A stretch of 64,000 nucleotides of DNA, taken from the NCBI GenBank assembly GCA_026707815.1, contig JAPOWB010000003.1:131380-195379 (forward strand), written 5' to 3'. The position numbers and the translations under genes are program-made. Positions 1,131-41,511 of this stretch are shown here, piece by piece; position 1 is the stretch's first letter; every line of letters begins with the position of its first letter. The notes below the pieces were generated by a model. The model made no database searches, had not been told where the DNA came from, and saw only the letters and a list, made by a program, of their open reading frames with translations. Source of the stretch: Candidatus Saccharimonadota bacterium (GTDB lineage Bacteria > Patescibacteriota > Saccharimonadia > Saccharimonadales > VXPC01).

Positions 1131-1421
1131 CTATAAATACTTCTGCTCTATGTCTTGAGCAATTATTTTGCCATTATCCTTAGTAATGCAAATACGGGCT
1201 ACAGTAGATTCTTTGAAGGACTCACATTGAATTACTATTCTATTGTTTTCATTGTTATCTGATTTATTAGTCGTACAAGCGAAAGAACTTATGCCTAAAG
1301 CTAAAGCCCCCATAGAAAGTAAAGCTCTTTCCTTTAGCTTCTTAGATCTATCTTGTTGAAGAGTAGTGTATTCGCTATTGTGAGTAAATTTCCAAATTCC
1401 AATATAGTCTATATTATACAA
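1131..1421 (-). CDS. Small hypothetical secreted/lipoprotein-like protein
   Basis: ORF only. Internal hydrophobic signal-like stretch LLSMGALALGISSFAC. No recognisable family. Confidence 0.3.
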   Translation of the reverse strand: MYNIDYIGIWKFTHNSEYTTLQQDRSKKLKERALLSMGALALGISSFACTTNKSDNNENNRIVIQCESFKESTVARICITKDNGKIIAQDIEQKYL

Positions 1422-1542
1422 GTTTTATAAGTAATATCAAGGTTGTATAATCTGTTAAACATCTAGATTGCTAAATCCCAAAACTGTTAATTAAACAATA
1501 GTATATTGAAATTAGACTTAGTCACTTAATTAAAGTAATTTG

Positions 1543-1581
1543 AGGTATTACAAGTATGAATATGACGCTGATGGTAATGAG
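1543..1581 (+). repeat. Orphan fragment of a YD-like repeat cassette
   Basis: aggtattacaagtatgaatatgacgctgatggtaatgag matches 23205-23243 inside CDS 22557-23531 with 3 mismatches in 39 nt. It has no promoter or leader, and tracked ORF 1540-1785 continues into unrelated sequence. Confidence 0.7.
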
Positions 1582-1824
1582 AGTATAATTCACACTACGC
1601 CACTCATAAATAAAGTTTTATTATTATCTTGGATAGCATTAGCTATACAAATAATGCCAATAATCCAACCAAACAGAGATACACTAAATAGATTGACTAT
1701 GCTAACCCCTAAAAATCCAAATACAAAGCTCTTTATCGCCTCTTTTAGGATTTATCTTTATTTAAAAAATGCCAAAACTCAATAAAATCATCGTCTTTGT
1801 TCGCCATAACATTTTATAAATCAA

Positions 1825-2319
1825 TTAGTGGTAATACTTGGTATCTATTAACCTGCCATCACCATCAAACCATTCTCTTTTAATCAACTCACCATCAGCA
1901 TCCCATTCATACTGGTAATACCGACTTAAATCACCATCAGCATCATACCATTCTGACTTTATCAGATTACTATCACCATCATATTCATATTGGTGATAAC
2001 TTGCTAAACTACCATCTGCATTATAGTCCTCTCTTTTAATCTGATTACCATCAGCATCATATTCATACTTATTGGATTGCCATAACTTGCCATCAGCACC
2101 ATAGTATTCAACACTAATCAAATTACCATCAGCATCACACAAAATATATTTTATTGTATCTGTATCTTTAGGACATTCTGTTTTATCTTTGGGGGTATCA
2201 ACTGGAGCTTTATTGAGTGGTTTTACTTCATCACCACTAGTTAAAGCATAGATGGTTATGCCAATGCCAACCAGTAAGACAATGATACTGGTAAGAATAA
2301 TGATTAGCTTTTTATTCAT
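1825..2319 (-). CDS. Membrane-anchored YD-like repeat protein (13-aa Y-D-x-D-G-N/K-L-I-K-x-E periodicity)
   Basis: Likely start is MNKKLIIILTSIIVLLVGIGITIYALTS (ATG at 2319; the track starts 11 codons earlier). Leader and KDKTECPKDTD module are near-identical to CDS 22557-23531. Body is YEYDADGNQIKRE / YDADGDLSRYYQ repeats, and the C-terminus DGDGRLIDTKYYH is shared with the paralog. Confidence 0.75.
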   Translation of the reverse strand: MNKKLIIILTSIIVLLVGIGITIYALTSGDEVKPLNKAPVDTPKDKTECPKDTDTIKYILCDADGNLISVEYYGADGKLWQSNKYEYDADGNQIKREDYNADGSLASYHQYEYDGDSNLIKSEWYDADGDLSRYYQYEWDADGELIKREWFDGDGRLIDTKYYH

Positions 2320-2398
2320 TAAATATAAGTATATCTCATAATCAATTACCAAAAAACAAACCCCCTAGTTAACATAATAATAATTACATTAAGTAGGA

Positions 2399-2427
2399 TT
2401 GATTTTTATCTGTAAAAATGATATAAT
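2399..2427 (+). promoter_or_regulatory. Sigma70-type promoter with extended -10, near-leaderless, for CDS 2436-2873
   Basis: TTGATT (2399-2404), 17 nt spacer, TGaTATAAT (-10 at 2422-2427), then 8 nt to ATG 2436. The same 29-nt element recurs at 21858-21886. Confidence 0.7.
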
Positions 2428-2435
2428 GGTTTCTT

Positions 2436-2873
2436 ATGATGACAAAAAATAAAAACACTATTCAATCTCCTAAAACTAATAGAGAAAGACAATATAGTGC
2501 TGAAGGTAGTTTGAATGGTATTGAACTCTATGATACCAATGGTAATAAGAGTAAACAAAACATCTACGATACTAATGGTAATCGGATTAAATCAGAATAC
2601 TATGATGCATATGGTAAGCTGATTAAAACAGAACACTATGATGCAAATGGTAATTTAAGGGAGTATTTCAGGTCTAAATATGATACCAATGGTAATAAGG
2701 TTAAAAAAGAAAAGTATTGGGGTAGTGGTAAGAGGTATGCAACAGAACACTATGATGCAGATGGTAATTTAATGTTTTATAACAGGTATGAATATGGTGA
2801 TGATGGTGATTTGATTACACTATACAGCCATAATGGTAATCATCAGTTAGTGGATAGGATGCATTTTAATTGA
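2436..2873 (+). CDS. YD-like repeat protein without signal peptide
   Basis: Repeats YDTNGNRIKSEYYDAYGKLIKTEHYDANGNL... The N-terminus MMTKNKNTIQSPKTNRERQYSAEGSL parallels MINKNTIKFPTDNIERQYNADDNL of CDS 21898-22455. Confidence 0.75.
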   Translation: MMTKNKNTIQSPKTNRERQYSAEGSLNGIELYDTNGNKSKQNIYDTNGNRIKSEYYDAYGKLIKTEHYDANGNLREYFRSKYDTNGNKVKKEKYWGSGKRYATEHYDADGNLMFYNRYEYGDDGDLITLYSHNGNHQLVDRMHFN

Positions 2874-2876
2874 TTT

Positions 2877-3113
2877 TTATAAGGCTTTCAGCCATTCGGC
2901 TTTATAGACATCTAAAATCTTTTTAATGGCAGTTAACTCACTTGGCAACTTGCTTATAAAAAGCTCTAAATCCTCAACCTCATATAAAGTAGTATCGTCA
3001 GTTTGAGGGGCTTTTAAGATAGCTATATTGTTTTCTAAATCAATCTCAATACTTATAAAAGGCTTACCATCAACTTGGCTGACTAGTTTTAAAGGCTCTT
3101 TCTTTTTAGTCAT
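2877..3113 (-). CDS. Hypothetical protein (78 aa)
   Basis: ORF only; no motif recognised. Confidence 0.35.
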   Translation of the reverse strand: MTKKKEPLKLVSQVDGKPFISIEIDLENNIAILKAPQTDDTTLYEVEDLELFISKLPSELTAIKKILDVYKAEWLKAL

Positions 3114-3208: not shown

Positions 3209-4033
3209 ATGGCTAAAATTTTAACTAAAAAACGATTATTGGAACACTCGGAAACAGAAAGCTATTTTAATCATGAGAATTTAAAAATTTACCAGCAAGA
3301 TTTTCTTAAATTAAAGACTCTGAAACCTAATACGATTGATTTAATCATTACCTCACCCCCTTATAATGTCAACATTGATTATAATTCCAATCCAGATGAT
3401 TTAAGTTATGAAGATTATTTGATTTTCAGCCATGCTTGGTTAAGTAAGTGTTATGAATTAGCTAAAAATGATGGACGACTGTGTTTGAATATACCCTTGG
3501 ATAAAAACAAAAATGGTCAGAGACCTGTTTATGCCGATTTGATGAACATTATTAAGCAGATTGGTTGGTCGTATCATTCAACAATTATTTGGCATGAAAG
3601 CAATATTTCTCGTCGAACTGCTTGGGGTTCATGGTTATCAGCTTGAGCTCCTTATGTTATTGCTCCAGTAGAAGTCATCGTGGTACTTTATAAAAAGTGT
3701 TGGAAAAAACACCTGAAAGGTCAATCTGACATCAACAAATCAGAATTTATGGCTTGGACTAATGGGGTTTGGCAATTTAATGGTCAATCTAAAGCTGGAG
3801 CCGGTGGACATCCAGCTGCTTTTCCGATTGAATTACCAAAAAGATGCCTTAAGTTATTTAGCTATGTTGGAGACACTATTTTAGATCCCTTTTTAGGTAG
3901 CGGTAGCACCTTGATTGCTACTCATCTGAATAACAGACAAGGTATTGGAGCTGAAATAGATAAGCATTATTGTGATATTGCTATCCAGAGATTGCAAAAA
4001 GAAGCTAAAATTAATCAGATTGATTTATTGTAA
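3209..4033 (+). pseudogene. Beta-class N4/N6 DNA methyltransferase interrupted by one in-frame TGA (3644-3646)
   Basis: Motif IV IITSPPYNV lies in the first ORF and motif I DPFLGSGST in the second, and both ORFs share one frame (3680-3209=471). Sequence across the stop, WGSWLSA*APYVIAPVEVIVVLYKK, still looks like the conserved family core. No restriction endonuclease partner is evident. Confidence 0.75.
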
Positions 4034-7472: not shown

Positions 7473-7482
7473 CCCCCCCCCC
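7473..7482 (+). repeat. C10 homopolymer tract
   Basis: Ten consecutive C directly after the TAA stop of CDS 7224-7472, in an AT-rich genome. Confidence 0.95.
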
Positions 7483-9404: not shown

Positions 9405-11705
9405 TTAGATCTTATTCTTCTTTCTGCGATTAGAAGAAACTGCAATAATTCCGATAATCACGGCAATAATAATGACCGTCATAATCACCCCAGTCATATC
9501 ATTATCATCATCTGTGGGCTTGGCTTCCTTATCCTCATTATTAGTAGATGAAGCGACTGCATCAGTTTCATCGATAATAATATTAGTGCCTTGATAGGAA
9601 ATTTTACCAGTAGCAGGATCAGTCACTCGAACACAAATACCATTCACAATCTCGCTAGCATTAATTACTCCTGAAGAATCTGCTTGGATTGGAGTAGCAT
9701 TTTCAAAAACTCCCTGATTACAGGGGATATCAGCATTGTTATGGGGGATGTATTCAAAATTTGACAGATCACTGCCATCAGATGAATTACCAAAAACTAA
9801 AAATTGATTTTCTTCAGCGTCGTAACTAACAGTTACCGTTGTTCCTAAATCAGAAGCTTGAGAATTAGTTGGCTGAATTGCAGTCTCACTTGGATTTGAA
9901 TCAACGCTCTCAACTTGAGAATTAGGGACGACTACTTCAGTAGTTGTTTCTTCTTCCTCATTGCTGGGAGCATCATCAATGTCGGCTGGTTGAGTTACCT
10001 CTCTATCATCACCATCAGTTGGGGTAGTCACTGGTGGAGTAGTTGGGGTCACATAGTTTAATTGAGCAATCTGAGATCTTTCATTGCCTCTATTGTCAGT
10101 GGCTTTGATGCAAATCCATCGACCATGTTCGGCTGATGTAGCAGTAATACTCACTTCAGCATCATTGTTTTTGTTATTGTAATTCTCTTTAAGAGAACAC
10201 TGATCATTTTGACTTGAAGCAAACTTCCAATCAACTGATTTAACTCCAGCAGTATCTTCAGCAGTAATCATCAGAGTGCTGCCTGAGACTTTCAAAGTCA
10301 TAGTTGGACTGGCACTATCTTCTACATATTCAATCCAAGCAGATGAAATCATGTTTTCACTATCACCTTCGTTACCTGATCCTTGCCAGCTAGTTATTGC
10401 TTCGCCCCTGTGATTGATACGCTCTACCAGTGTACCCACAAAACAGTATCTACTTCCGATATTTGCTTTGGATAAATCTATTTTCTGATTGTCAATAACT
10501 TTGACGCTTGTAATATCATTGGGATTTTTCTCCATGAACTCATAACAAGTATCATTGCCGGGATCCATTTCTGTCATATAAGCTCTCCATACTACTGGTG
10601 GTGATTCGAAAGCATCAAAGATGTCCAGTTTGCCGGGAATAGTTTTAACTATTAAAGTTTTATCATCTTCATAGGAAATACTTGTCTCGGGAGTTGGGTT
10701 TAAGATTACAGCATCATTAATCTCTATCGCTTCTGTCAAGATATTTTGTACACCTGCAGAAGAGTCATCCAAATCATTACTTAAATCTATTGAATTACCA
10801 AATTTATCTCTAATCATAAAATTGCTACCACCAATATAGTTCATACTAGCTGACCTCTCTAGCGAGTGGAAAAAGTTCGATATATCAAAGCGATATGTTG
10901 AAAAAGTAAGAGTTTGACCACGAGCTAATACTTGGTTGGCTGACAGCGTTGTTGGAAAACTTAAGTCCACATCAAGTTCAAGCACATAAGCCAAATTCTT
11001 TCTTAGAGTCCCTGGTTCAACCTTATTTTCTATATGAATACTAGGCATAAAACTGCGATCACTGTATCTCGCCGTTGTGCGGACTACAATTTCAACTTCT
11101 TCATCAAATTCAATTGAAAAACTAAATCTATCCCCAATATCGGTATAATCATATTTACCACTGATATCAACTTTCTGTTTGTTTTTCAATTTGGGTGGAG
11201 TTAAATCTATTCTAGTATCACTAACTAAGTAAACTGGATCGTAAAGAAGAGCAATCTCGGAAGTATCTCTATTATCCCTATAGACTGCTTCAAAACAAGC
11301 ATATTTATCACTAAAATCTAGAGTTGACTGATTGTCTGTTGTATCAGCATCAATAGTCATCGGTTGAGTAGTTCTTCTGCTAACATTGACTCCAGAGGCA
11401 ATATCAGTAGCATCTGATGCTATGGCATCTTCATCACAATCATCCCTCTCATCAACGGCAGCCACTTTAACGGTGGCTACCCTATGTTCGAGAGGAGATC
11501 TAATTTTAGCCACCAAGATGTTGCCAGTGCCTCTCGAAATATCTTGGATGGAACCACTAGGATGAGCATCGTCGTCGTGAGCTTTGACTAAATTGAGGGG
11601 GGGGGTAATCCCAGAAACGATTAATAGACCAACCAACCCTAGCAGAATAGATGACAAGACCGCCCGCTTTTTATTTACTAAATTTAATATATTTTTTTCA
11701 CGCAT
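9405..11705 (-). CDS. Surface protein with N-terminal signal/anchor, two-cysteine W...C...C modules, acidic Thr/Pro stalk and C-terminal TM anchor
   Basis: N-terminal hydrophobic LSSILLGLVGLLIVSG and C-terminal VIMTVIIIAVIIGIIAVSSNRRKKNKI. Modules such as VDWKFASSQNDQCSL...HGRWICIKATDNRGNE and FEYIPHNNADIPCNQ...NGICVRVTDPATG resemble the repeats of CDS 27709-31815. Confidence 0.8.
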   Translation of the reverse strand: MREKNILNLVNKKRAVLSSILLGLVGLLIVSGITPPLNLVKAHDDDAHPSGSIQDISRGTGNILVAKIRSPLEHRVATVKVAAVDERDDCDEDAIASDATDIASGVNVSRRTTQPMTIDADTTDNQSTLDFSDKYACFEAVYRDNRDTSEIALLYDPVYLVSDTRIDLTPPKLKNKQKVDISGKYDYTDIGDRFSFSIEFDEEVEIVVRTTARYSDRSFMPSIHIENKVEPGTLRKNLAYVLELDVDLSFPTTLSANQVLARGQTLTFSTYRFDISNFFHSLERSASMNYIGGSNFMIRDKFGNSIDLSNDLDDSSAGVQNILTEAIEINDAVILNPTPETSISYEDDKTLIVKTIPGKLDIFDAFESPPVVWRAYMTEMDPGNDTCYEFMEKNPNDITSVKVIDNQKIDLSKANIGSRYCFVGTLVERINHRGEAITSWQGSGNEGDSENMISSAWIEYVEDSASPTMTLKVSGSTLMITAEDTAGVKSVDWKFASSQNDQCSLKENYNNKNNDAEVSITATSAEHGRWICIKATDNRGNERSQIAQLNYVTPTTPPVTTPTDGDDREVTQPADIDDAPSNEEEETTTEVVVPNSQVESVDSNPSETAIQPTNSQASDLGTTVTVSYDAEENQFLVFGNSSDGSDLSNFEYIPHNNADIPCNQGVFENATPIQADSSGVINASEIVNGICVRVTDPATGKISYQGTNIIIDETDAVASSTNNEDKEAKPTDDDNDMTGVIMTVIIIAVIIGIIAVSSNRRKKNKI
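11597..11605 (-). repeat. C9 (coding-strand) homopolymer inside the 5' end of CDS 9405-11705
   Basis: att acc ccc ccc ctc encodes ITPPL, just after the signal/anchor segment. Confidence 0.95.
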
Positions 11706-11743: not shown

Positions 11744-11753
11744 CCCCCCCCCC
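11744..11753 (-). repeat. G10 (gene-strand) homopolymer 39 nt upstream of the start of CDS 9405-11705
   Basis: Ten consecutive C on the plus strand. On the gene strand the tract abuts a weak -35 (ATTAGA), then 17 nt, TAATAT, 9 nt and ATG. Confidence 0.9.
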
Positions 11754-21295: not shown

Positions 21296-21625
21296 GTTGA
21301 AATTATTGCAGAGGCCATCGGAATTAAATCACATTTTTCATGTAATGATACTATCTTTACCTCAAACTCTAATAATTCAGCTAGAGAGAGATTGACAGGG
21401 CGAAGTCTGTATAGATTAGTCAAATCTCTTTTAAAAGAGCTGAATATAGATAAAGATATTCATAGTTTCAGACATTTTTTTGTTACCCAATTAATAGACA
21501 ATGGTTTTGAAATTATGCAGACAATGAAACTATCAAGGCATAAATCTTTACCGATGATGCAGGTTTATTATGATGAAAGGCAAAGCCTTGAATTTACTGA
21601 TGAAATGTTAAATAGTTTGAGATAG
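21296..21625 (+). pseudogene. C-terminal fragment of a tyrosine recombinase/integrase
   Basis: The open frame from 21296 has no plausible N-terminal domain. It reads LTGRSLYRLVKSLLKELNIDKDIHSFRHFFVTQLIDNGFEIMQTMKLSRHKSLPMMQVYYD, giving HxxR, a second His and a catalytic Tyr context. Confidence 0.7.
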
Positions 21626-21675
21626 AAATTAGTATGAGTGATATCCCTAAACAATGCTAAGAGATTTATGCTGGA

Positions 21676-21861
21676 GTGGTTAGCTTGATGTCTAATTACA
21701 AGCAATACCTTACCCAAGCCGAAGCAGATGCCTTTTTAAAATCAGTTGATGTCAATAGAGATAAACACATATCCCTTGCAGTAAAGAGTAAGCAAGGTTT
21801 AGATGCTATTACGAGTATTGCTTTAGGGGTTACTGGGTTATGTGGGGGGGGGCAGTATTGA
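21676..21861 (+). CDS. Hypothetical protein (61 aa) ending in a G9 tract
   Basis: ORF only. The last codons tgt ggg ggg ggg cag tat tga contain the homopolymer. Confidence 0.3.
   Translation: MVSLMSNYKQYLTQAEADAFLKSVDVNRDKHISLAVKSKQGLDAITSIALGVTGLCGGGQY
21844..21852 (+). repeat. G9 homopolymer tract 5 nt upstream of the -35 of the cassette promoter
   Basis: tgtGGGGGGGGGcagtaTTGATT. Confidence 0.95.
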
Positions 21862-21886
21862 TTTTTATCTGTAAAAATGATATAAT
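21858..21886 (+). promoter_or_regulatory. Sigma70-type promoter with extended -10 for CDS 21898-22455 (copy of 2399-2427)
   Basis: TTGATT, identical 17-nt spacer tttatctgtaaaaatga and TATAAT, then 11 nt to ATG 21898. Confidence 0.7.
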
Positions 21887-21897
21887 AACTTCTTATA

Positions 21898-22455
21898 ATG
21901 ATAAATAAAAATACTATTAAATTTCCTACAGATAATATAGAAAGACAATATAATGCTGATGATAATTTAGAAAGACATACCTATATTCGTATGATGGTAA
22001 AAAATAAATTAAACAACACCCTTAAATTTTCTAGAAATAATATAGAAAGACACTATGATGCTCTTGGTAATTTAAAAGGATATACCAGCTATGAATATAA
22101 TGATGATGATAGGTTAAAGTCGTATACCGAGGTTAAATGTGATGCTAATGGTAATCCGATTAAACAAGAACGATATGATGCTGATGGTCATTTAAAAGGA
22201 TATACCAACTATGAATATAATCGTGATGGTAGGTTAAAGTCGTATACCAAGTTTGAATGTGATGGTAATCTGATTACAAAAGAATACTATTATGCTAATG
22301 GTGAGAGGTTGAACAAAGAATACAAAGAATACTATGATACTGATGGTAGGTTAAAGTTCTATTTTAGGTATGAATATAATGGTGATGGTGATTTGATTGC
22401 AAAAGACAGCTATACTGGTGATGGTGATTTAGTAAATACCACGTATTACCACTAA
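21898..22455 (+). CDS. YD-like repeat protein without signal peptide
   Basis: Repeats YDALGNLKGYTSYEYNDDDRLKSY, CDANGNPIKQERYDADGHLKGY... and a C-terminus DGDLVNTTYYH. Confidence 0.75.
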   Translation: MINKNTIKFPTDNIERQYNADDNLERHTYIRMMVKNKLNNTLKFSRNNIERHYDALGNLKGYTSYEYNDDDRLKSYTEVKCDANGNPIKQERYDADGHLKGYTNYEYNRDGRLKSYTKFECDGNLITKEYYYANGERLNKEYKEYYDTDGRLKFYFRYEYNGDGDLIAKDSYTGDGDLVNTTYYH

Positions 22456-22493
22456 TTGATTTTTACCCCATAAAAAGTATATAACCCTAATAA

Positions 22494-22525
22494 CCCCCCC
22501 CCTTAATTAGGGGGTTTTGTTTTTT
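22494..22525 (+). terminator. Intrinsic terminator-like hairpin whose 5' arm is a C9 tract
   Basis: CCCCCCCCC-TTAATTA-GGGGG followed by TTTTGTTTTTT. Lies between the two cassette genes. Confidence 0.65.
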
Positions 22526-22556
22526 GGTAATTGATTATGAGATATACTTATAATCA

Positions 22557-23531
22557 ATGAATAAAAAGCTAATCATTATTCTTGCCAGCATCATTGTCTT
22601 ACTGGTTGGGATAGGTATAACCATCTATGCTTTAACTAGTGATGATGAAGTAAAAATAGTAAAATCTGATGATACTACAAACAATACGCCAGATACAGAT
22701 AAAGAAGCTCAAACTAGTAAGCCAGTTGATACTACTAAAGAAGTAAAGCCAGTTGATAAAGCTCCAGCTGATGCCCCCAAAGATAAAACAGAATGTCCTA
22801 AAGATACAGATTACAGAAAACATACTTGTGATACTGGTGGCAATGTGATTAAATCAGAAATCTATGATGATGGTAAGTTAGGGGGGTATGTTCAGTTTGA
22901 ATACAATGCTAATGGTAAGTTGATTAAACAAGATGTTTATGATACTGATGGTAATTTGGCTTGGACTGAACACTATGATGTAGATGGTAATTTGATTGAA
23001 ACTATCTCACATAAAGATAAAACAGAATGCCCTAAAGATACAGATATCAAAAAATATATTTGTGATGCTGATGGTAATGTGATTAAAAGAGAACACTATG
23101 ATGTTGATGGTAAGTTAAAGTGGTATTACAAATATGAATATGATGCTGACGGCAATGTGATTAAAAGAGAATGGCATAATTATAATGCTGATGGTAAGTT
23201 AAGGGGGTATTACAAATATGAATATGATGCTGATGGTAATGAGATTAAATATGAACACTATGATACTGATGGTAATTTAAGGGGATATAATAAGTCTGAA
23301 TATGATGCTGATGGTAATAGAGTTAAATTTGAATACTATGGTGCTGATGGTAATCTTATTCAGCAAGACCACTATGATGCTGATGGTAATGTGATTAAAA
23401 GAGAAAACTATGACGCTGATGGTAATTCAAAGGGATATGAGAAGTATGAATATGATGCTGATGGTAATCAGATTAAATCAGAATGGTTTGATGGTGATGG
23501 TAAGTTGATAAATACTAGGTATTACCACTAA
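22557..23531 (+). CDS. Membrane-anchored YD-like repeat protein with internal module duplication
   Basis: The leader MNKKLIIILASIIVLLVGIGITIYALTS matches CDS 1825-2319. The KDKTECPKDTD..C.. module occurs twice (nt ~22781 and ~23013). Long run of YEYDADGNxIKxE / YDxDGKLxGYYK repeats, ending DGDGKLINTRYYH. Confidence 0.8.
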   Translation: MNKKLIIILASIIVLLVGIGITIYALTSDDEVKIVKSDDTTNNTPDTDKEAQTSKPVDTTKEVKPVDKAPADAPKDKTECPKDTDYRKHTCDTGGNVIKSEIYDDGKLGGYVQFEYNANGKLIKQDVYDTDGNLAWTEHYDVDGNLIETISHKDKTECPKDTDIKKYICDADGNVIKREHYDVDGKLKWYYKYEYDADGNVIKREWHNYNADGKLRGYYKYEYDADGNEIKYEHYDTDGNLRGYNKSEYDADGNRVKFEYYGADGNLIQQDHYDADGNVIKRENYDADGNSKGYEKYEYDADGNQIKSEWFDGDGKLINTRYYH

Positions 23532-23559
23532 TTGATTTTTAACCTATAAAAATATATAA

Positions 23560-23590
23560 CCCCCTTTTTTTAATTAGGGGTTTTTATTCT
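23560..23590 (+). terminator. Intrinsic terminator-like hairpin
   Basis: CCCCCTTTTTTTAATTAGGGG followed by TTTTTATT, homologous to the 22494-22525 element. Confidence 0.5.
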
Positions 23591-23663
23591 GATTATTTAA
23601 AAGGATTAAAAGGCGATTTACTAATTAAATTATCTAATAAAGTGGAAGAATCTATTCTAAATT

Positions 23664-23739
23664 TGGTGGGTCGTCTGGGACTCGAACCCAGGGCACACGG
23701 GTTAAAAGCCCGTTGCTCTACCAGCTGAGCTAACGACCC
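23664..23739 (-). tRNA. tRNA-Lys (anticodon UUU), CCA encoded
   Basis: Reverse complement gggtcgttagctcagctggtagagcaacgggcttttaacccgtgtgccctgggttcgagtcccagacgacccacca folds as a cloverleaf: 7-bp acceptor, D arm gctc/gagc, anticodon stem acggg/cccgt with loop cuUUUaa, T arm ctggg/cccag. Confidence 0.95.
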
Positions 23740-23816
23740 TGATTAGACAAACTTATTATACGATAATAGTTAAAATTTTTTGGGATTAGAGATTCTTTCA
23801 TCAATGGAACTTTTTT

Positions 23817-27708: not shown

Positions 27709-30700
27709 TTACACATAGTCTAAATCAGAAGAAGAGTCATGATCATCTAATCCACCATTGGAAGAATCATTTCTATGATGCTTCTTGCTCAAAGCTAGAA
27801 AGATTAAAGTCACAATCAAAAGAGCAACTAAAGCCCCTCCAATAATCAAGATTAGATCTTGGTTATCTGTCTCTTCCTCATCAGCTGGAGTTGACTCAGT
27901 TGTTTCAGCCTCATCGGTTGGTTTTTCTTCAGATGACGGTTGAGTTGACTCAGGCTGGGCAGCCTTATCCAAACTGACCGTTAAAGATTCATAAGTGTAA
28001 TTCCCCTTGGCATCAGCGACTCTGAAACAGTAAACTGCTCCGCTTGAGGCTTGATTGAGATTCACTTCGTTGCCTGATTTGACTAGACTGCTATTTCTGA
28101 AAGCTCTATAATCGCAAGCTTGATTATCTTTCAAAACAACATATTGCCAATTTTTAACATCTTCATCAGAAGTTGCCATGATGGTTTCAGCAGTTTGCTT
28201 GACCGTCACTTGAGGAGCTTTGGTATCAATGCCAGTCACAAAAATCTTAGCATGACCAACAATACCATTGTCAGCTACAACCTTGAAACAATACCAATAA
28301 CCATTACTACTCTCGTTTAGAATCAGCTTGTGGGCTGATTTGGAAGCTTCTGAGAATTCTAGCTGATTATCTGGGCTACAATCTATGTCAGTTCTTGATC
28401 TAAGCCACTGCCAAGTGTTGTTGTCAACATTATCAGCTGAGGCGGTCAAAGTAGTATTTCTTAGAGTCAGGCTAATAACTGGAGCTTCAAGATTAATCTC
28501 ATTTAAAACTATCCCCTTATAACCATAGTTACCATGTTTATCAGCTACTCGGAAACAATAATAAATGAAATCGCTATCATGGGTGGTCACATCAAAAGAT
28601 ATTTCAGATGATTCAACTTGGTTAAGCTTATCAAAAGTTAAATCTTCTCCTTGGCAATCTAGCTGCGTCTTGCTGTAAAAGTAACCCCAAGTTGTCACAT
28701 CTAAATCATCATCTGTACTCTCAATGGTTAGTAAAATATTATTCTGAGTAATCTTAATCGTTGGAGCTTGACGATCAATTCTGATTTTACTGTAAGTAGT
28801 TAGCCCTCGCTGGTTTGAAACCTTGAAACATAGCCAGTGATAAGCTGAGCCAAGATTCTTTACTTGTAAGTTAAGCTCTAGCGAATTATTGTGGTTTTTA
28901 ACAAACTGCAGGTTGCTATTGGGGCCACAATATGGCTCAGTCAGAGATAAAGCCCAAGCCCAAGTTGAGTAATTGACATTAGCTGAAGTTGAGCGAGCAA
29001 TAATCCTGCCCGCTGGAGTTTCGAGAGTGATGACTGGTGAACTTTGATCATCAACTTTACCAACGCTATAAAGAGCATAAATATAATTACCAGCATAATC
29101 AGCAACCTTGAAACATAACCAGTGATTATTATCTACTTCTCTTAATAACAATTGCCTATTAGCCGGCAAGCGAGTAATTAAAGAATTAGAATAAGTCTGA
29201 CAATCAACGCTTTGACTAAATTTAGCATACTGCCAAGTATCGTGATCAACATCTGTGGACGAAGAATTAATGGTTAAGATATTAGCTGTATCGTTGAACT
29301 TAAAGCCAATCACAGGAGTCGATAAATCATAGCGGTATTTGGCGTACCCATAATTGCGAGCATTACCAGCTTGGCTTGAAGTATCAGCTACTCGGAAGCA
29401 ATAGTAAGCTCCGTGTTGTGCATCAGAAATATTGCTAATAACAATCTTCTGAGTTGAAGATGTCAACAAATTAGTATTTACATCTGTATAAGTGACTTTA
29501 GAACAATCACCGGGATCAGAGCTGAAGGTTGCCCAAGCCCAACTGTAGCCATCAACATCATCGGCGGTTGTACTAACCTCGATGACTCGAGCTTGAGATT
29601 TTTGGATAACTTTCAGAGCCGGTGGATTATCAATAGTAGTAATTTGGTTGCTTTTAGCATAGCCGTAGTTACCGGCTTTGTCAGCCACTCGGAAACAGTA
29701 ATATCTGTCACTATCGCTTTCACTGAGAGTTACTGTATTGTTCTGGCTATTAGCCCGATTAAAGCTTAAATCTTTATCACAGTCAAAATCATCATTGACT
29801 TGACTGCGAGCATACTGCCAAGAATTGACATTAATGTCTGTTGCCTTAGTAGTAGCTGTTAATGTTGAGCCTTTTTGCCCAACTTCAACTACAGGGGCTG
29901 TAGCATCAAAGGTTTTGATACGAATTTTACCGTAACCGAAGAAATCAAGATTGTTTAAAACTCGGAAGCAAAACCAATAATTAATATCATCTTCAACTAA
30001 ATTCAAAGTCTGATCGTCAAAGCTTCGCCAAGTCAAATTGGGAGCAACAGTTCTACAATTAGATGGCTGGTTGGTTCGAGACACTCGAGCATAACGCCAA
30101 GAATCTTTATCAATAGCCACATTATTGCTGACTTGAACTGTCAAGACAGATCCTTTTTGAGTCATACTAATAGTTGGTGTGGCAGTATTCAAAGAAGTAA
30201 CATGATAAGCATCGCTATAACCAACATTGCCGTATTGATCCTCAACTTTAAAGCAAAAGTAATCATTGACATCATTGCTATCTAGTCTAATTTGAGAGCC
30301 TCGATTAACAGTTAAATCTTCAAAAGTATCCTCATCGCATTCCAAATCATCTTCATCTTCAACCCATCGCCAAGTGCTACTTTGAGGTCGATCTTTGCTA
30401 GAGGAGGTAGCCCACAATAAATTATTGGTTTGACGCAATTTAATTGTCGGAGCAACAACGTCAATTTTGATAGATTTATAAGCATAATTACCAACTAAAC
30501 TATCAGCCACTCTCAAGCATAGCCATTGATCCTCAACGTCTTCGTCAGCTCCAGTATCAGTCAAATCAATAATAGTATAGCTTCGTTTAGTCGTGGAACG
30601 ATTTTCAAGCGTCAGACCAACAGAAGACCATCCAGTCAATTGAGAATGACAATCATCATCTGTCTCAATCACATATTGCCAAGAATTTCCATCAACTTCA

Positions 30701-31815
30701 ACCGCATCATAAGCATTGGCTTTGACAGTTAAACGGGATTGTTGAAGACCACTTAAAGTGGGCGGATTGTTGATGGTGGTAGCACTGACATGGGAATAAG
30801 CGTAATGACCAACATTATCAGCTACTCGGAAACAATAAGTCCGACCTGCAGTTGACTGAGTTAGGGTAATAACTGCTCTATCTCGACTAATAACCGCACC
30901 TTTGAAAGTATCCAAGTCTTTGAAACTAGTGTATCGACTATTACATTTAGAAGCTGAAATAGTCGCATACTGCCAAGAATCTAAATTAATATTGGCATTA
31001 CTATCAGGTTGACTATCATTATTGTCATCTTGGAAGACTGAAACTGTTAATATGGCATTATTTTGGTTAACGCTTAATTGTGGTGAGCGAGTATCAACTT
31101 GAAAACCAGCTGTATTATAGCCCACATTACCCTGATCATCAGTCAGCTTAAAGCAGTAGTATTTACCGTGATTACCATCACTGAGAGGCATAATCAGAGT
31201 TTTGGTTGTAGCGACATTTTGCTCAGTAAAAGATCCTGACTCAGCACTACAATCACTAACAGCTGTATCAGAGATAAGAACTTCCCAAGTGGCGATTTGA
31301 CTAATATCATCAGCTGTTGCCACTAAGTTATTGGCTTGTTGCTTGACGGCGACTACTGGAGCTTGTTGATCAATAGTGAACAAAGCGTAGTACTCTTTAG
31401 TGCTAGCATCGTTATTCGGGCGTTGATACAAAACCTTCAAACAATAATATGAATGTCCAACCCCAAGAGTAGCAGTGAAAGTCGCTTGATTAGCAACATT
31501 ATCCCAATCAGCTAATCTTGTCGTTCCAAAGCCTTGAGCAGAACAAGACTGATTGTTGACCACTTGGCTATAGTGGATATGTGTCTCAGCCTGGGAATTG
31601 GTAAAATATTTGACTTCGTAACCTTCAGGGGCTTCTACAGTAGCAGTCACCTCTGCATTTGTTCTAGAAAATGTAACCGTCGGAGCAACCGCTTGGACTA
31701 ATAACCACCCCAAATAAATAGATGAAATAAGCACAATAGAAGCTAGAAAAACTAAATAGCTAACCCATATAGTTTTTCGAGTTCGTGGCTGAGCAAGATT
31801 ATTCACTTGATTCAA
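27709..31815 (-). CDS. Giant surface protein: N-terminal signal/anchor, 13 tandem ~95-aa two-cysteine repeats, acidic stalk, C-terminal TM anchor and acidic cytoplasmic tail
   Basis: Repeat consensus is APxIxVxQxxNxLTATxxDxDVDxxSWQYAxxxxxxDCxxxxxF...(25-35 aa)...YYCFRVADKAGNYGY. C-terminal TM is LILIIGGALVALLIVTLIFLAL. Likely true start is GTG 31806, 9 nt after AAGGAG (31816-31821), rather than the tracked TTG 31815. Confidence 0.85.
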   Translation of the reverse strand: MNQVNNLAQPRTRKTIWVSYLVFLASIVLISSIYLGWLLVQAVAPTVTFSRTNAEVTATVEAPEGYEVKYFTNSQAETHIHYSQVVNNQSCSAQGFGTTRLADWDNVANQATFTATLGVGHSYYCLKVLYQRPNNDASTKEYYALFTIDQQAPVVAVKQQANNLVATADDISQIATWEVLISDTAVSDCSAESGSFTEQNVATTKTLIMPLSDGNHGKYYCFKLTDDQGNVGYNTAGFQVDTRSPQLSVNQNNAILTVSVFQDDNNDSQPDSNANINLDSWQYATISASKCNSRYTSFKDLDTFKGAVISRDRAVITLTQSTAGRTYCFRVADNVGHYAYSHVSATTINNPPTLSGLQQSRLTVKANAYDAVEVDGNSWQYVIETDDDCHSQLTGWSSVGLTLENRSTTKRSYTIIDLTDTGADEDVEDQWLCLRVADSLVGNYAYKSIKIDVVAPTIKLRQTNNLLWATSSSKDRPQSSTWRWVEDEDDLECDEDTFEDLTVNRGSQIRLDSNDVNDYFCFKVEDQYGNVGYSDAYHVTSLNTATPTISMTQKGSVLTVQVSNNVAIDKDSWRYARVSRTNQPSNCRTVAPNLTWRSFDDQTLNLVEDDINYWFCFRVLNNLDFFGYGKIRIKTFDATAPVVEVGQKGSTLTATTKATDINVNSWQYARSQVNDDFDCDKDLSFNRANSQNNTVTLSESDSDRYYCFRVADKAGNYGYAKSNQITTIDNPPALKVIQKSQARVIEVSTTADDVDGYSWAWATFSSDPGDCSKVTYTDVNTNLLTSSTQKIVISNISDAQHGAYYCFRVADTSSQAGNARNYGYAKYRYDLSTPVIGFKFNDTANILTINSSSTDVDHDTWQYAKFSQSVDCQTYSNSLITRLPANRQLLLREVDNNHWLCFKVADYAGNYIYALYSVGKVDDQSSPVITLETPAGRIIARSTSANVNYSTWAWALSLTEPYCGPNSNLQFVKNHNNSLELNLQVKNLGSAYHWLCFKVSNQRGLTTYSKIRIDRQAPTIKITQNNILLTIESTDDDLDVTTWGYFYSKTQLDCQGEDLTFDKLNQVESSEISFDVTTHDSDFIYYCFRVADKHGNYGYKGIVLNEINLEAPVISLTLRNTTLTASADNVDNNTWQWLRSRTDIDCSPDNQLEFSEASKSAHKLILNESSNGYWYCFKVVADNGIVGHAKIFVTGIDTKAPQVTVKQTAETIMATSDEDVKNWQYVVLKDNQACDYRAFRNSSLVKSGNEVNLNQASSGAVYCFRVADAKGNYTYESLTVSLDKAAQPESTQPSSEEKPTDEAETTESTPADEEETDNQDLILIIGGALVALLIVTLIFLALSKKHHRNDSSNGGLDDHDSSSDLDYV

Positions 31816-40977: not shown

Positions 40978-41511
40978 ATGTCTAAATTTGAATCATTTAC
41001 CCCCCCCCGCCACCGCGATCTTATAGTTGATATCACTGAAAGATTGGATCAGCCAAATAATTGTATCAATGGTAATTTTGAGATTAATAAAAATTATCAG
41101 CCAGAAACAACTAAGATTTCTGAAGCCACCAAAACTCAACCAGAAATTGTAGAGATTATCCCTTCCCCGACTATCGTTGATTGCAATCATTTGCCAAAAA
41201 TGAAAGTCAGGCTGAAAAACAGAAAAATTGCTGTTGTCAGTAAAAAACCAACCCCCATTAAAAAAGACTGGCATCAAGATGCTGCTTGTCGGGGTTTAAT
41301 TGATTTATTCTATAAGGAATATCCAACTAAAGAAGATACAACTAAAGTGAAAGACTTGTGCTGTCGTTGCCCAGTCGTTTCTTCCTGTTTAGAAACTGGG
41401 TTGACTGCTAATCGGGGAATCCCAGAAAAATTTGGAATTTGGGCTGGTTTCAACTCAAGAGAACTCTCGAAAATTCATCGAGCCCGGCAGGCAGATAGAA
41501 AATTCAGCTAA
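40978..41511 (+). CDS. WhiB-like (Wbl) Fe-S transcription factor with ~95-aa N-terminal extension
   Basis: WHQDAACRG...(x)...LCCRCPVVSSCLETGL...FGIWAGFNSRE gives four Cys in C-Xn-C-X2-C-X5-C spacing plus the G[IV]WGG-like turn. Confidence 0.75.
   Translation: MSKFESFTPPRHRDLIVDITERLDQPNNCINGNFEINKNYQPETTKISEATKTQPEIVEIIPSPTIVDCNHLPKMKVRLKNRKIAVVSKKPTPIKKDWHQDAACRGLIDLFYKEYPTKEDTTKVKDLCCRCPVVSSCLETGLTANRGIPEKFGIWAGFNSRELSKIHRARQADRKFS
41000..41008 (+). repeat. C9 homopolymer in codons 8-11 of the WhiB-like gene
   Basis: ttt acc ccc ccc cgc (FTPPR). Confidence 0.95.

Follow-up and report, generated by a model that had tools for sequence, protein, structure and literature searches.

Probable reshuffling of modular beta-hairpin-repeat genes at a locus of a sponge-associated Saccharibacteria-like bacterium

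Introduction

How two small repeat-protein genes come to stand head to head at one place in a genome when their paralogs stand in tandem at another, and whether such an arrangement still changes, is the question raised by a locus here called island 1. It lies in a 64,000-nucleotide (nt) stretch of contig JAPOWB010000003.1 (the window, whose numbering is used throughout), part of the metagenome-assembled genome (MAG) OXF49 of a Saccharibacteria-like bacterium of the candidate phyla radiation (CPR). The closest GTDB genomes by UvrC belong to the Saccharimonadia, at 35-37% identity; all relatives from that scan lie at 33-37%, and no synteny was gained from it. NCBI labels the UvrC and DnaJ of the window as MAG proteins of 'Candidatus Saccharibacteria bacterium'. 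From sample names such as ROBB21 and SHAF22 we infer that the source material was sponge metagenomes. Island 1 carries two genes for proteins made of YD-type repeats, the B-type gene B1, with a signal/anchor N-terminus, and the A-type gene A1, without a signal sequence, and their paralogs A2 and B2 make up locus 2. A sequence-only reading of the window had regarded the two loci as products of cassette shuffling rather than simple duplication, with a rearrangement breakpoint inside a terminator hairpin. As described below, island 1 is probably one locus of a modular family of beta-hairpin-repeat protein genes that has been reshuffled by ectopic recombination, gene conversion, and indels.

Shared Modules and the Break at Island 1

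Comparison of the two loci on both strands by blastn (1400-3000 against 21600-23800) bore out the claim that B1 and A1 are paralogs of the A2-B2 pair and that B1 is inverted relative to its partner: B1 is head to head with A1, whereas A2 and B2 are in tandem. The two loci also share non-coding junctions, and not coding likeness alone. On opposite strands, 2221-2372 matches 22655-22503 at 93.5% identity over 153 nt, a segment comprising the B 5' untranslated region and the signal-anchor codons, and the repeat bodies of B1 and B2 are 68-76% identical. On the same strand, 2395-2804 matches 21854-22269 at 66%, within which the A promoter and N-terminus (2395-2452 against 21854-21911) reach 86%, both copies carrying TTGATT-17-TGaTATAAT. 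Among copies generally, non-coding modules are 86-95% identical, against about 75% for repeat bodies.

The break at the B1 side falls where the sequence-only reading had placed it. The hairpin between A2 and B2 consists of C9 (22494-22502), TTAATTA, G5, and T4GT6; it was scored as terminator-like in a scan, with six pairs of which five are GC, and folds in this way. Folding z-scores are uninformative because shuffled sequences retain the C and G runs. On the B1 strand island 1 reads ...ATTATTATGTTAACTAGGGGGTTTGTTTTTTGG, and homology to locus 2 begins at TTAAyTAGGGGG (window 2372), within the hairpin loop (TTAACTAGGGGGTTTG...). The C9 arm is absent from island 1, and inspection of the sequence together with folding revealed neither a C-tract nor a G/C hairpin at the B1 junction.

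To define the modules, flanking sequences were compared for ten cassette genes of the window and related contigs. The 3' module consists of TAATTGATTTTTA(A/C)CCyATAAAAA-TATATAAC, then a hairpin of a C-run and a G-run, and last a T-run, and is found 3' of A2, B2, and the sister-strain genes B3 and B4. Its first part resembles the A promoter, and a diverged version follows the single B gene of a contig from a different species (L009, in which UvrC is about 60% identical). The B 5' module runs from a G-run through a T-rich tract and GGTAATTGATTATGAGATATACTTATAnTnA to the ATG and signal peptide, and is 94-95% conserved with the first 29 codons included. In these codons 3-8 of 87 nt differ among B1, B2, B4 (contig L008), and B', a gene on the short contig L006; synonymous codon differences number 1-4 between any two of the four and 2-4 in comparisons with B1. 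Since divergence is much lower in this module than in the gene bodies, the pattern points to homogenisation rather than to selection alone. Six different upstream contexts were found for it, and homology starts each time at the G-run (4 to 8 G), so that the hairpin break is the recurrent left boundary of the B 5' module rather than a one-off event. Searches with the module pattern gave no matches in Joint Genome Institute (JGI) metagenome contigs or in IMG/VR, and hence no sign there of wider spread or of a phage link.

Strain Alleles of Island 1

A look-up of SecG, encoded about 800 nt from island 1, led to ten sibling contigs, which were sorted into three types. Type I (the window, L020, L022, and L027) has the layout of the window. 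Type II is that of the sister MAG OXF30 (GCA_026708245.1; L023, L026, and L029), which is 99.0% identical over 12.5 kb. Two independent assemblies, L001 and L002, have island 1 in identical form, and in type II, a third strain (L023), it is collinear at 97%. In type II a small orphan cassette fragment is fully conserved and A1 differs at 1 nt, and B1 encodes 168 amino acids (aa), with a replaced linker and about 13 clustered substitutions in one repeat (1899-1975). In type III (L021, L024, L025, and L028) the block of some 940 nt that contains B1 is missing, and CCG links window position 1447 to about 2388; types I and II continue after 1447 with TAATCTG... and type III with CCGATTAAGG.... The A gene of type III has the same type of promoter and an identical 3' flank, with a different body of 139 aa and a B-like C-terminus, GKLIDTRYYH.

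The two B1 alleles differ in the patch at about 1899-1975. The window version contains a 37-nt exact match to B4 of the sister strain, and the sister-strain version a 31-nt exact match to B2 of the window. Together with the replaced A gene body, these exact paralog matches in allelic patches are possible signs of segmental exchange.

About 5 kb past SecG, type III strains carry a gene for a TraG/TrwB-like coupling protein of 740-744 aa (L024 5646-6821), at which place a window-type strain has only a remnant of 103 aa (a weak match to TraG-D_C; L020 11049-11360). This difference is a further case of strain-level decay or variation near island 1.

Strain Alleles of Locus 2 and Mosaic Copies

Locus 2 is likewise variable. 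In one sibling contig (L016) its flanks are 98.9% identical to those of the window and B2 encodes 319 aa, with a 72-nt repeat insertion and an 84-nt deletion; A2 is absent, and upstream of the B module, as far as the G-run, the sequence bears no relation to A2. After B2 the terminator is CCCCC-T7AATTA-GGGG in the window (equivalent 23559-23585), CCCCCTCATTGTAGGGG in L017, and CCCCCTTTATTTTTTTTT-G10 in L016 (about 11310-11340), where the window has G4. The arms and loops of cassette terminator hairpins change quickly between strains.

Further copies combine parts of both loci. A sister-strain locus with both short flanks of locus 2 carries the tandem genes B3 and B4 (L007/L008); the B3-B4 junction aligns collinearly with that of A2-B2 (84% over 286 nt), and the 5' module of B4 is 95% identical to that of island 1. 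The 1.2-kb contig L006, which carries the protein P0001 (OXF49_01275) and by its protein accession series belongs to the same MAG as the window, has the head-to-head junction of island 1 at 88% identity, with G8. It is a mosaic, with a locus-2-type linker in B', a variant A promoter as in type III, and an A1-type 3' flank after B', and its locus is either a paralog or a co-binned relative of island 1.

Relatives therefore have no single fixed arrangement: island 1 occurs in three states and locus 2 in at least two, with flanks 98-99% identical. Strains about 99% identical in the flanks differ in the presence of the B1 block, in replacement of the A body, in gain or loss of repeats in B2, and in patches within B1. 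The polymorphism seen is one of presence or absence of the block and of replacement of bodies or repeat patches, not one of alternative orientation. Shared non-coding modules, junctions that recur at module edges, mosaic copies, and allelic replacement in near-identical strains support shuffling of cassettes rather than simple duplication.

Mechanism and Competing Explanations

In the account that we favor, and think probable, the bacterium would possess a family of such genes at three or four loci at least. B-type genes combine a near-invariant 5' module (G-run, T-rich tract, probable promoter, and signal/anchor), a linker, and a two-cysteine loop. A-type genes have a near-consensus promoter of their own and no signal sequence. 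All cassette genes end in the TAATTGATTTTTA... 3' module, and in most cases a terminator hairpin of a C-run and a G-run comes next. Shared modules and repeats would be the sites at which copies undergo ectopic homologous recombination, gene conversion, and indels. An old rearrangement would have given the head-to-head B1/A1 pair, with one break in the hairpin loop, at the left edge of the B module, and the second just 5' of the A promoter, and the orphan fragment would be the decayed remnant of another cassette. As a consequence, strains would differ in an exposed binding surface that serves contact with a host or partner.

Several points weigh against this account. The 940-nt block can be read as an insertion or a deletion, and the B1 arrangement as an inversion or an inverted insertion. 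The comparison is one of assembled contigs. The B1 patches fit short conversion tracts, yet exact matches of 31-37 nt in a family that is 75-80% identical are suggestive and no proof, and the source of L006 may be a co-binned strain and not this genome. Surface exposure and a binding function are predictions from sequence and a structural model only. Finally, no promoter can be assigned to B1 with confidence: a sigma-70 scan gave at most weak candidates in the B 5' module, and the other candidate, TTGTCA-16-TATCAT on the minus strand at 2445-2418, overlaps the A promoter.

The most serious competitor, which we nevertheless consider unlikely, is programmed variation, that is, high-frequency switching through slippage of G/C runs, inversion of B1, or conversion from partial or silent cassettes. 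Within 1400-3000 no inverted repeats flank 1825-2400, all inverted repeats there being coding repeat units, and the precomputed Pfam assignments of all genes show no invertase or recombinase within 10 kb. The alternative orientation of 1825-2400 that the sequence-only reading had suggested looking for in sibling genomes is absent from the roughly ten contigs, in which the segment has the same orientation or the block is missing. An invertible switch was rejected on these grounds. As it is shared with L006 (at 88%) and with the sister strain, the head-to-head junction is old and inherited, and on the favored account not actively flipping.

An array of silent cassettes of the vls, pilS, or MgPa type was not found, the one fragment measuring 39-65 nt and the other copies being complete genes with upstream modules; all four genes of the window have a start and an upstream module of their own.

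In the window, which is 64% A+T (36% GC), no A/T run reaches 9 nt, yet there are six G/C runs of 9-10 nt (7473-7482, 11597-11605, 11744-11753, 21844-21852, 22494-22502, and 41000-41008), against 0.03 runs of at least 9 nt expected from 200 first-order simulations of the 64-kb window. Two of the six (G9 and C9) lie at module edges of locus 2, one follows a small open reading frame (ORF) at 7473, one falls in codons 8-10 of ORF 40978-41511, and two are at the 5' end of a gene for a surface-type protein of 766 aa, one coding and one just upstream of a promoter-like site. Of all these runs, only the coding tract of the 766-aa gene shows an effect on the reading frame: it is C9 and in frame in the window, and C10 in the sister strain (L011 3962), where the N-terminal frame ends after about 46 codons. 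In that strain the gene caller gives a product of 702 aa, and the promoter region has a 10-nt indel. The C9 and C10 alleles resemble an ON/OFF pair, as is characteristic of slipped-strand contingency genes. Run lengths also vary at the cassettes, from G4 to G8 in copies of the B module and between G4 and G10 in the B2 terminator of the window and its sibling. A conserved 5' module followed by variable repeats is moreover a parallel to the Vlp and Vsp genes of mycoplasmas, and many assemblies have contig breaks at these loci. Eight or more contigs, from independent assemblies, end beside or within them (L002 at window 3007, L011 and L012 at 3066, L013 at 3091, L010 before locus 2, and L017-L019 inside B2), breaks that fit repeats or strain heterogeneity. 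Against slippage, island 1 itself has no long homopolymer run, and where L001 covers tracts, three in all, their lengths agree with the window. The G-runs lie upstream of, and outside, the putative promoter spacers, so that no on/off mechanism is evident for A or B genes.

A broader version, that the symbiont has a genuine contingency system in which G/C runs switch surface genes, tune expression of the cassettes, and act as recombination hot spots, with reshuffling fast enough to give surface diversity within a population, can be put forward only tentatively; we rate its chances at about one in four in plain terms, a possibility and not an expectation.

Ancient duplication followed by independent divergence, in which purifying selection kept the modules and the strain differences are ordinary deletions, is improbable. 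The 5' module is functional sequence whose likeness selection alone could preserve, and the head-to-head junction is stably inherited, as such a history would have it. Synonymous sites of the first 29 codons are nearly unchanged, however, in genes whose bodies have diverged by about 25%; the A body has been replaced at an orthologous site with identical flanks; L006 pairs the island-1 junction with coding sequence of the locus-2 type; and the allelic patches match other paralogs exactly. A chimeric assembly of repeat-containing reads, which the metagenomic source, the repeat-rich sequence, and the many contig ends at these loci might suggest, is scarcely credible, since the same junction occurs in three independent window-type assemblies, in the sister-strain MAG, and in other samples, and is homologous at 88% in L006.

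Genes and Parts of the Two Loci

The features of island 1 and locus 2 are collected in Table 1.

Table 1. Positions of cassette genes, modules, and associated features in the window.
Feature	Position	Strand	Description
Polymorphic block	1448..~2387		About 940 nt; in types I and II, not III; fragment, 72-aa gene, B1, B 5' module, and spacer
Orphan fragment	1544..1582	plus	YYKYEYDADGNE; slightly more than one hairpin repeat unit; orientation opposite to B1
72-aa gene	1590..1807	minus	Small membrane protein; downstream of B1; frameshifted in window by 1-nt deletion near 1746
B1 3' module remnant	1814..1827	minus	TAATTGATTT; promoter-like box and terminator hairpin missing or decayed
B1	1825..2319	minus	164 aa (ORF list, Pfam, AlphaFold model); N-terminal signal/anchor helix MNKKLIIILTSIIVLLVGIGITIYALTS, linker, Cys-x11-Cys loop CPKDTDTIKYILC, about four beta-hairpin super-repeats of 26 aa (12+14)
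B 5' module, non-coding part	2320..2372	minus	Loop remnant TTAACTA, G5, T-rich tract, GGTAATTGATTATGAGATATACTTATATTTA to ATG
Spacer between divergent modules	2373..2394		CATAATAATAATTACATTAAGT; rearrangement junction; specific to island 1: not in locus 2, common to L006 and L023
A-type promoter	2399..2427	plus	TTGATT-17-TGaTATAAT; 10/12 matches, TG present; kept in L006, L021, and L023
A1	2436..2873	plus	145 aa; repeat protein without signal sequence; atypical C-terminal tail
A1 3' module	2871..2904	plus	TAATTGATTTTTA (common to all cassette genes), then TAAGGCTTTCAGCCATTCGGCTTTA
766-aa protein gene	9405-11705	minus	Signal-anchored protein; coding tract 11597-11605
A2 promoter region	21844..21886	plus	G9 run directly 5' of TTGATT (21858-21863); TATAAT ends at 21886
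A2	21898..22455	plus	185-aa unanchored paralog; N-terminal motif duplicated internally
Inter-cassette region	22453..22556	plus	3' module TAATTGATTTTTACCCCATAAAAAGTATATAAC, C9-TTAATTA-G5 hairpin and T-run, B 5' module
B2	22557..23531	plus	324-aa anchored paralog; two Cys-loop-plus-repeat modules

A TTG-extended version of B1, of 175 aa, is not conserved, as a stop interrupts its equivalent when the sequence of locus 2 is read, and the N-terminus called an anchor could equally be a cleaved signal peptide. The start codon of A1 is 8-11 nt past the -10 box, which suggests a very short or absent leader, and the true start is likely the second ATG, at 2439; the exact A1 protein was found by look-up on sibling contigs. 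The 3' module of A1 overlaps the end of a convergent 78-aa ORF (2877-3113), and the same 38 nt of 3' flank (92%) recur 3' of B' in L006 and of the replaced A gene in L021.

The fragment beside B1 is real, though the sequence-only reading had set it 1 nt too early (1543-1581) and counted three mismatches; it differs from 23206-23244 at 2 of 39 nt, where 100 shuffles led to an expectation of 0 matches. Weaker likeness extends to 1607 (83% over 65 nt by blastn), the fragment is 100% conserved in the sister strain, and no other cassette sequence was found around it. The neighboring 72-aa membrane-protein gene is intact in L023, L026, and L029, and it shares the block with B1 and so is absent with it from type III strains. 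An 81-aa plus-strand ORF (1540-1785) considered as a fusion partner or alternative C-terminus of B1 was rejected as the antisense shadow of this gene, intact as it is in the sister strain.

Beyond the 78-aa ORF, which is conserved, an N6/N4 DNA methyltransferase gene (3209-4033, plus) carries in the window a stop codon in frame, at 3644-3646 (WLSA*APYV), and is intact in sibling contig L021 (R at the stop position, 273 aa in total); no cognate restriction gene was obvious.

At locus 2, homology of the A2 promoter region to island 1 begins directly after the G9 run. B2 contains an internal duplication, 22779-22872 and 23013-23106, in which the module KDKTECPKDTD...C appears twice at 85% identity, so that the gene amounts to two B bodies fused in one; B4 and the L009 protein P0002 are likewise two-module. 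Directly upstream of the locus lies a 57-aa ORF, MSNYKQYLTQAEADAFLKSVDVN... (21689-21862, plus), which ends in the G9 run and whose 5' part is 92% identical to sequence upstream of the sister-strain B3-B4 locus (L008 2527-2628); it may be part of a repeated unit or a conserved insertion site. Further on, a 1368-aa ORF (27709-31815, minus) has internal repeats every 280-590 nt or so, a 1365-aa allele in L016, and weak similarity to a 561-aa protein in L007, and is probably another repeat-rich surface protein.

Repeats, Fold, and Predicted Location of the Proteins

The products of A1, A2, B1, and B2 are composed of YD-type units with alternating spacing of 12 and 14 residues, giving a super-repeat of 26 residues (78 nt). 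B1 and B2 exceed the cut-offs of two Pfam families, RHS_repeat (PF05593; cut-off 22 bits, with scores of 29.6 and 48.7) and DUF2963 (PF11178; cut-off 22.6, with scores of 26.2 and 42.3). A1 and A2 fall below both, at 14.9 and 19.2 bits for RHS_repeat and, for DUF2963, at 19.7 bits in A1 and likewise below the cut-off in A2. Exact-sequence look-ups of B1, A2, B2, and a 198-aa neighbor returned no database match.

A proteins have no hydrophobic N-terminus and have in common the motif M-x-KNKNTIxSPKxNxExQ. B proteins begin with MNKKLIIILTSIIVLLVGIGITIYALTS; their N-terminus, MNKKLIIILTSIIVLLVGIGITIYALTSGDE, contains no cysteine and hence no lipobox. With a signal/anchor peptide, they are predicted to be exported or tethered at the surface. 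The AlphaFold (AF2) model of B1 has a mean predicted local distance difference test score (pLDDT) of 80 and consists of a helix (4-27), a disordered linker, and a nine-strand beta-hairpin sheet with pLDDT above 90. Foldseek matches of the sheet include segments of Rhs/teneurin YD shells, the single-layer sheet of OspA, and the SdgB dimerisation domain (7vfl, E = 4.4e-5), and the best template modelling (TM) score belongs to the small beta-hairpin protein BF3112 (PDB 3msw). On the model, the cassette proteins are short single-layer beta-hairpin sheets and not Rhs toxins.

Relation to Known Systems

Among described protein groups the cassette proteins most resemble the phytoplasma 'Scorpion' DUF2963 effectors, which have beta-hairpin repeats of about 26 residues, paralogs with variable repeat number, and an SdgB-like structure (bioRxiv 10.1101/2025.07.14.664665). 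Common to both are repeats of that length forming hairpins in one sheet, a signal sequence or helix at the N-terminus, multiple paralogs in a genome that differ in repeat number, a genome-reduced and host-dependent bacterium, structural similarity to the SdgB dimerisation domain, and DUF2963 scores above the cut-off in B1 and B2. In contrast to the 'Scorpion' proteins, those of the window come from a Saccharibacteria-like CPR bacterium of sponges and not from a mollicute, exceed the RHS_repeat cut-off as well, and in the B type have a loop with two cysteines and in some cases two modules. The window loci showed no plasmid or potential mobile unit (PMU) context. As to a secreted effector acting in a eukaryotic host, the one feature visible in the window proteins is the N-terminal signal/anchor. 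Nothing in the 'Scorpion' description corresponds to the modular non-coding units at the 5' and 3' ends or to the polymorphism among strains of the window family.

With Rhs/YD toxins and teneurins the cassette proteins share the YxYDxxGN... motif, the RHS_repeat match, and top Foldseek hits to shell segments. An Rhs polymorphic toxin was rejected all the same: at 145-350 aa, with roughly 4-16 hairpins, the proteins have too few for a closed shell, and the B1 model is an open nine-strand sheet. No Rhs core motif, C-terminal toxin domain, immunity gene, or VgrG, PAAR, type VI secretion system (T6SS), or Tc partner was found by Pfam or among neighboring genes. Rhs loci are known for orphan C-terminal cassettes and for recombination, but shuffling in the window involves entire small genes and repeat units and not toxin tips. 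JGI gives the name 'antitoxin YwqK' to one database hit; a YwqK/MORN-variant antitoxin was rejected, as MORN_2 scores of 13-18 bits stand against a cut-off of 29.6 and there is no adjacent toxin gene.

Mycoplasmas have variable surface families such as Vlp of M. hyorhinis, Vsp of M. bovis, and Vsa of M. pulmonis. Like these, the window family has clustered paralogs, a conserved 5' non-coding region and signal peptide with in-frame repeats that vary in number between strains, recombination among paralogs, homopolymer tracts near promoters, and a bacterium with a reduced genome and a host-dependent life. Unlike them, it has no lipobox, the mycoplasma-type lipoprotein signal being precluded by the lack of cysteine in the B N-terminus, and no promoter-spacer tract, site-specific invertase, or vis-type sites; its repeats are structured beta-hairpins rather than low-complexity sequence, and high-frequency switching is not in evidence among the contigs compared.

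The limited literature searched contained no account of a family of this kind and nothing specific on homopolymer phase variation in Saccharibacteria/Patescibacteria or on YD repeats in sponge Patescibacteria.

Implications

Recombining multigene families of repeat-containing exported proteins are a known kind, and the underlying mechanism, recombination among paralogous repeat genes, is ordinary; such families are not known to have been described in this lineage. The DUF2963/'Scorpion' type of repeat is extended from mollicutes to another genome-reduced lineage. Should the contingency system prove genuine, it would be a CPR counterpart of antigenic and phase variation in mycoplasmas and Neisseria. 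The junctions are defined (1447 to 2388, the G-run edge, and the six G/C runs) and can be scored in existing sponge metagenome reads. CPR bacteria and Saccharibacteria are obligate epibionts or symbionts with tiny genomes in which variation of the contact surface is poorly known, and island 1 offers a concrete and traceable case, a modular family of small repeat proteins, predicted to be exported, whose copies swap parts and whose loci differ between strains about 99% identical in flanking sequence, beside homopolymer tracts that vary between strains and inactivate a surface-protein gene.

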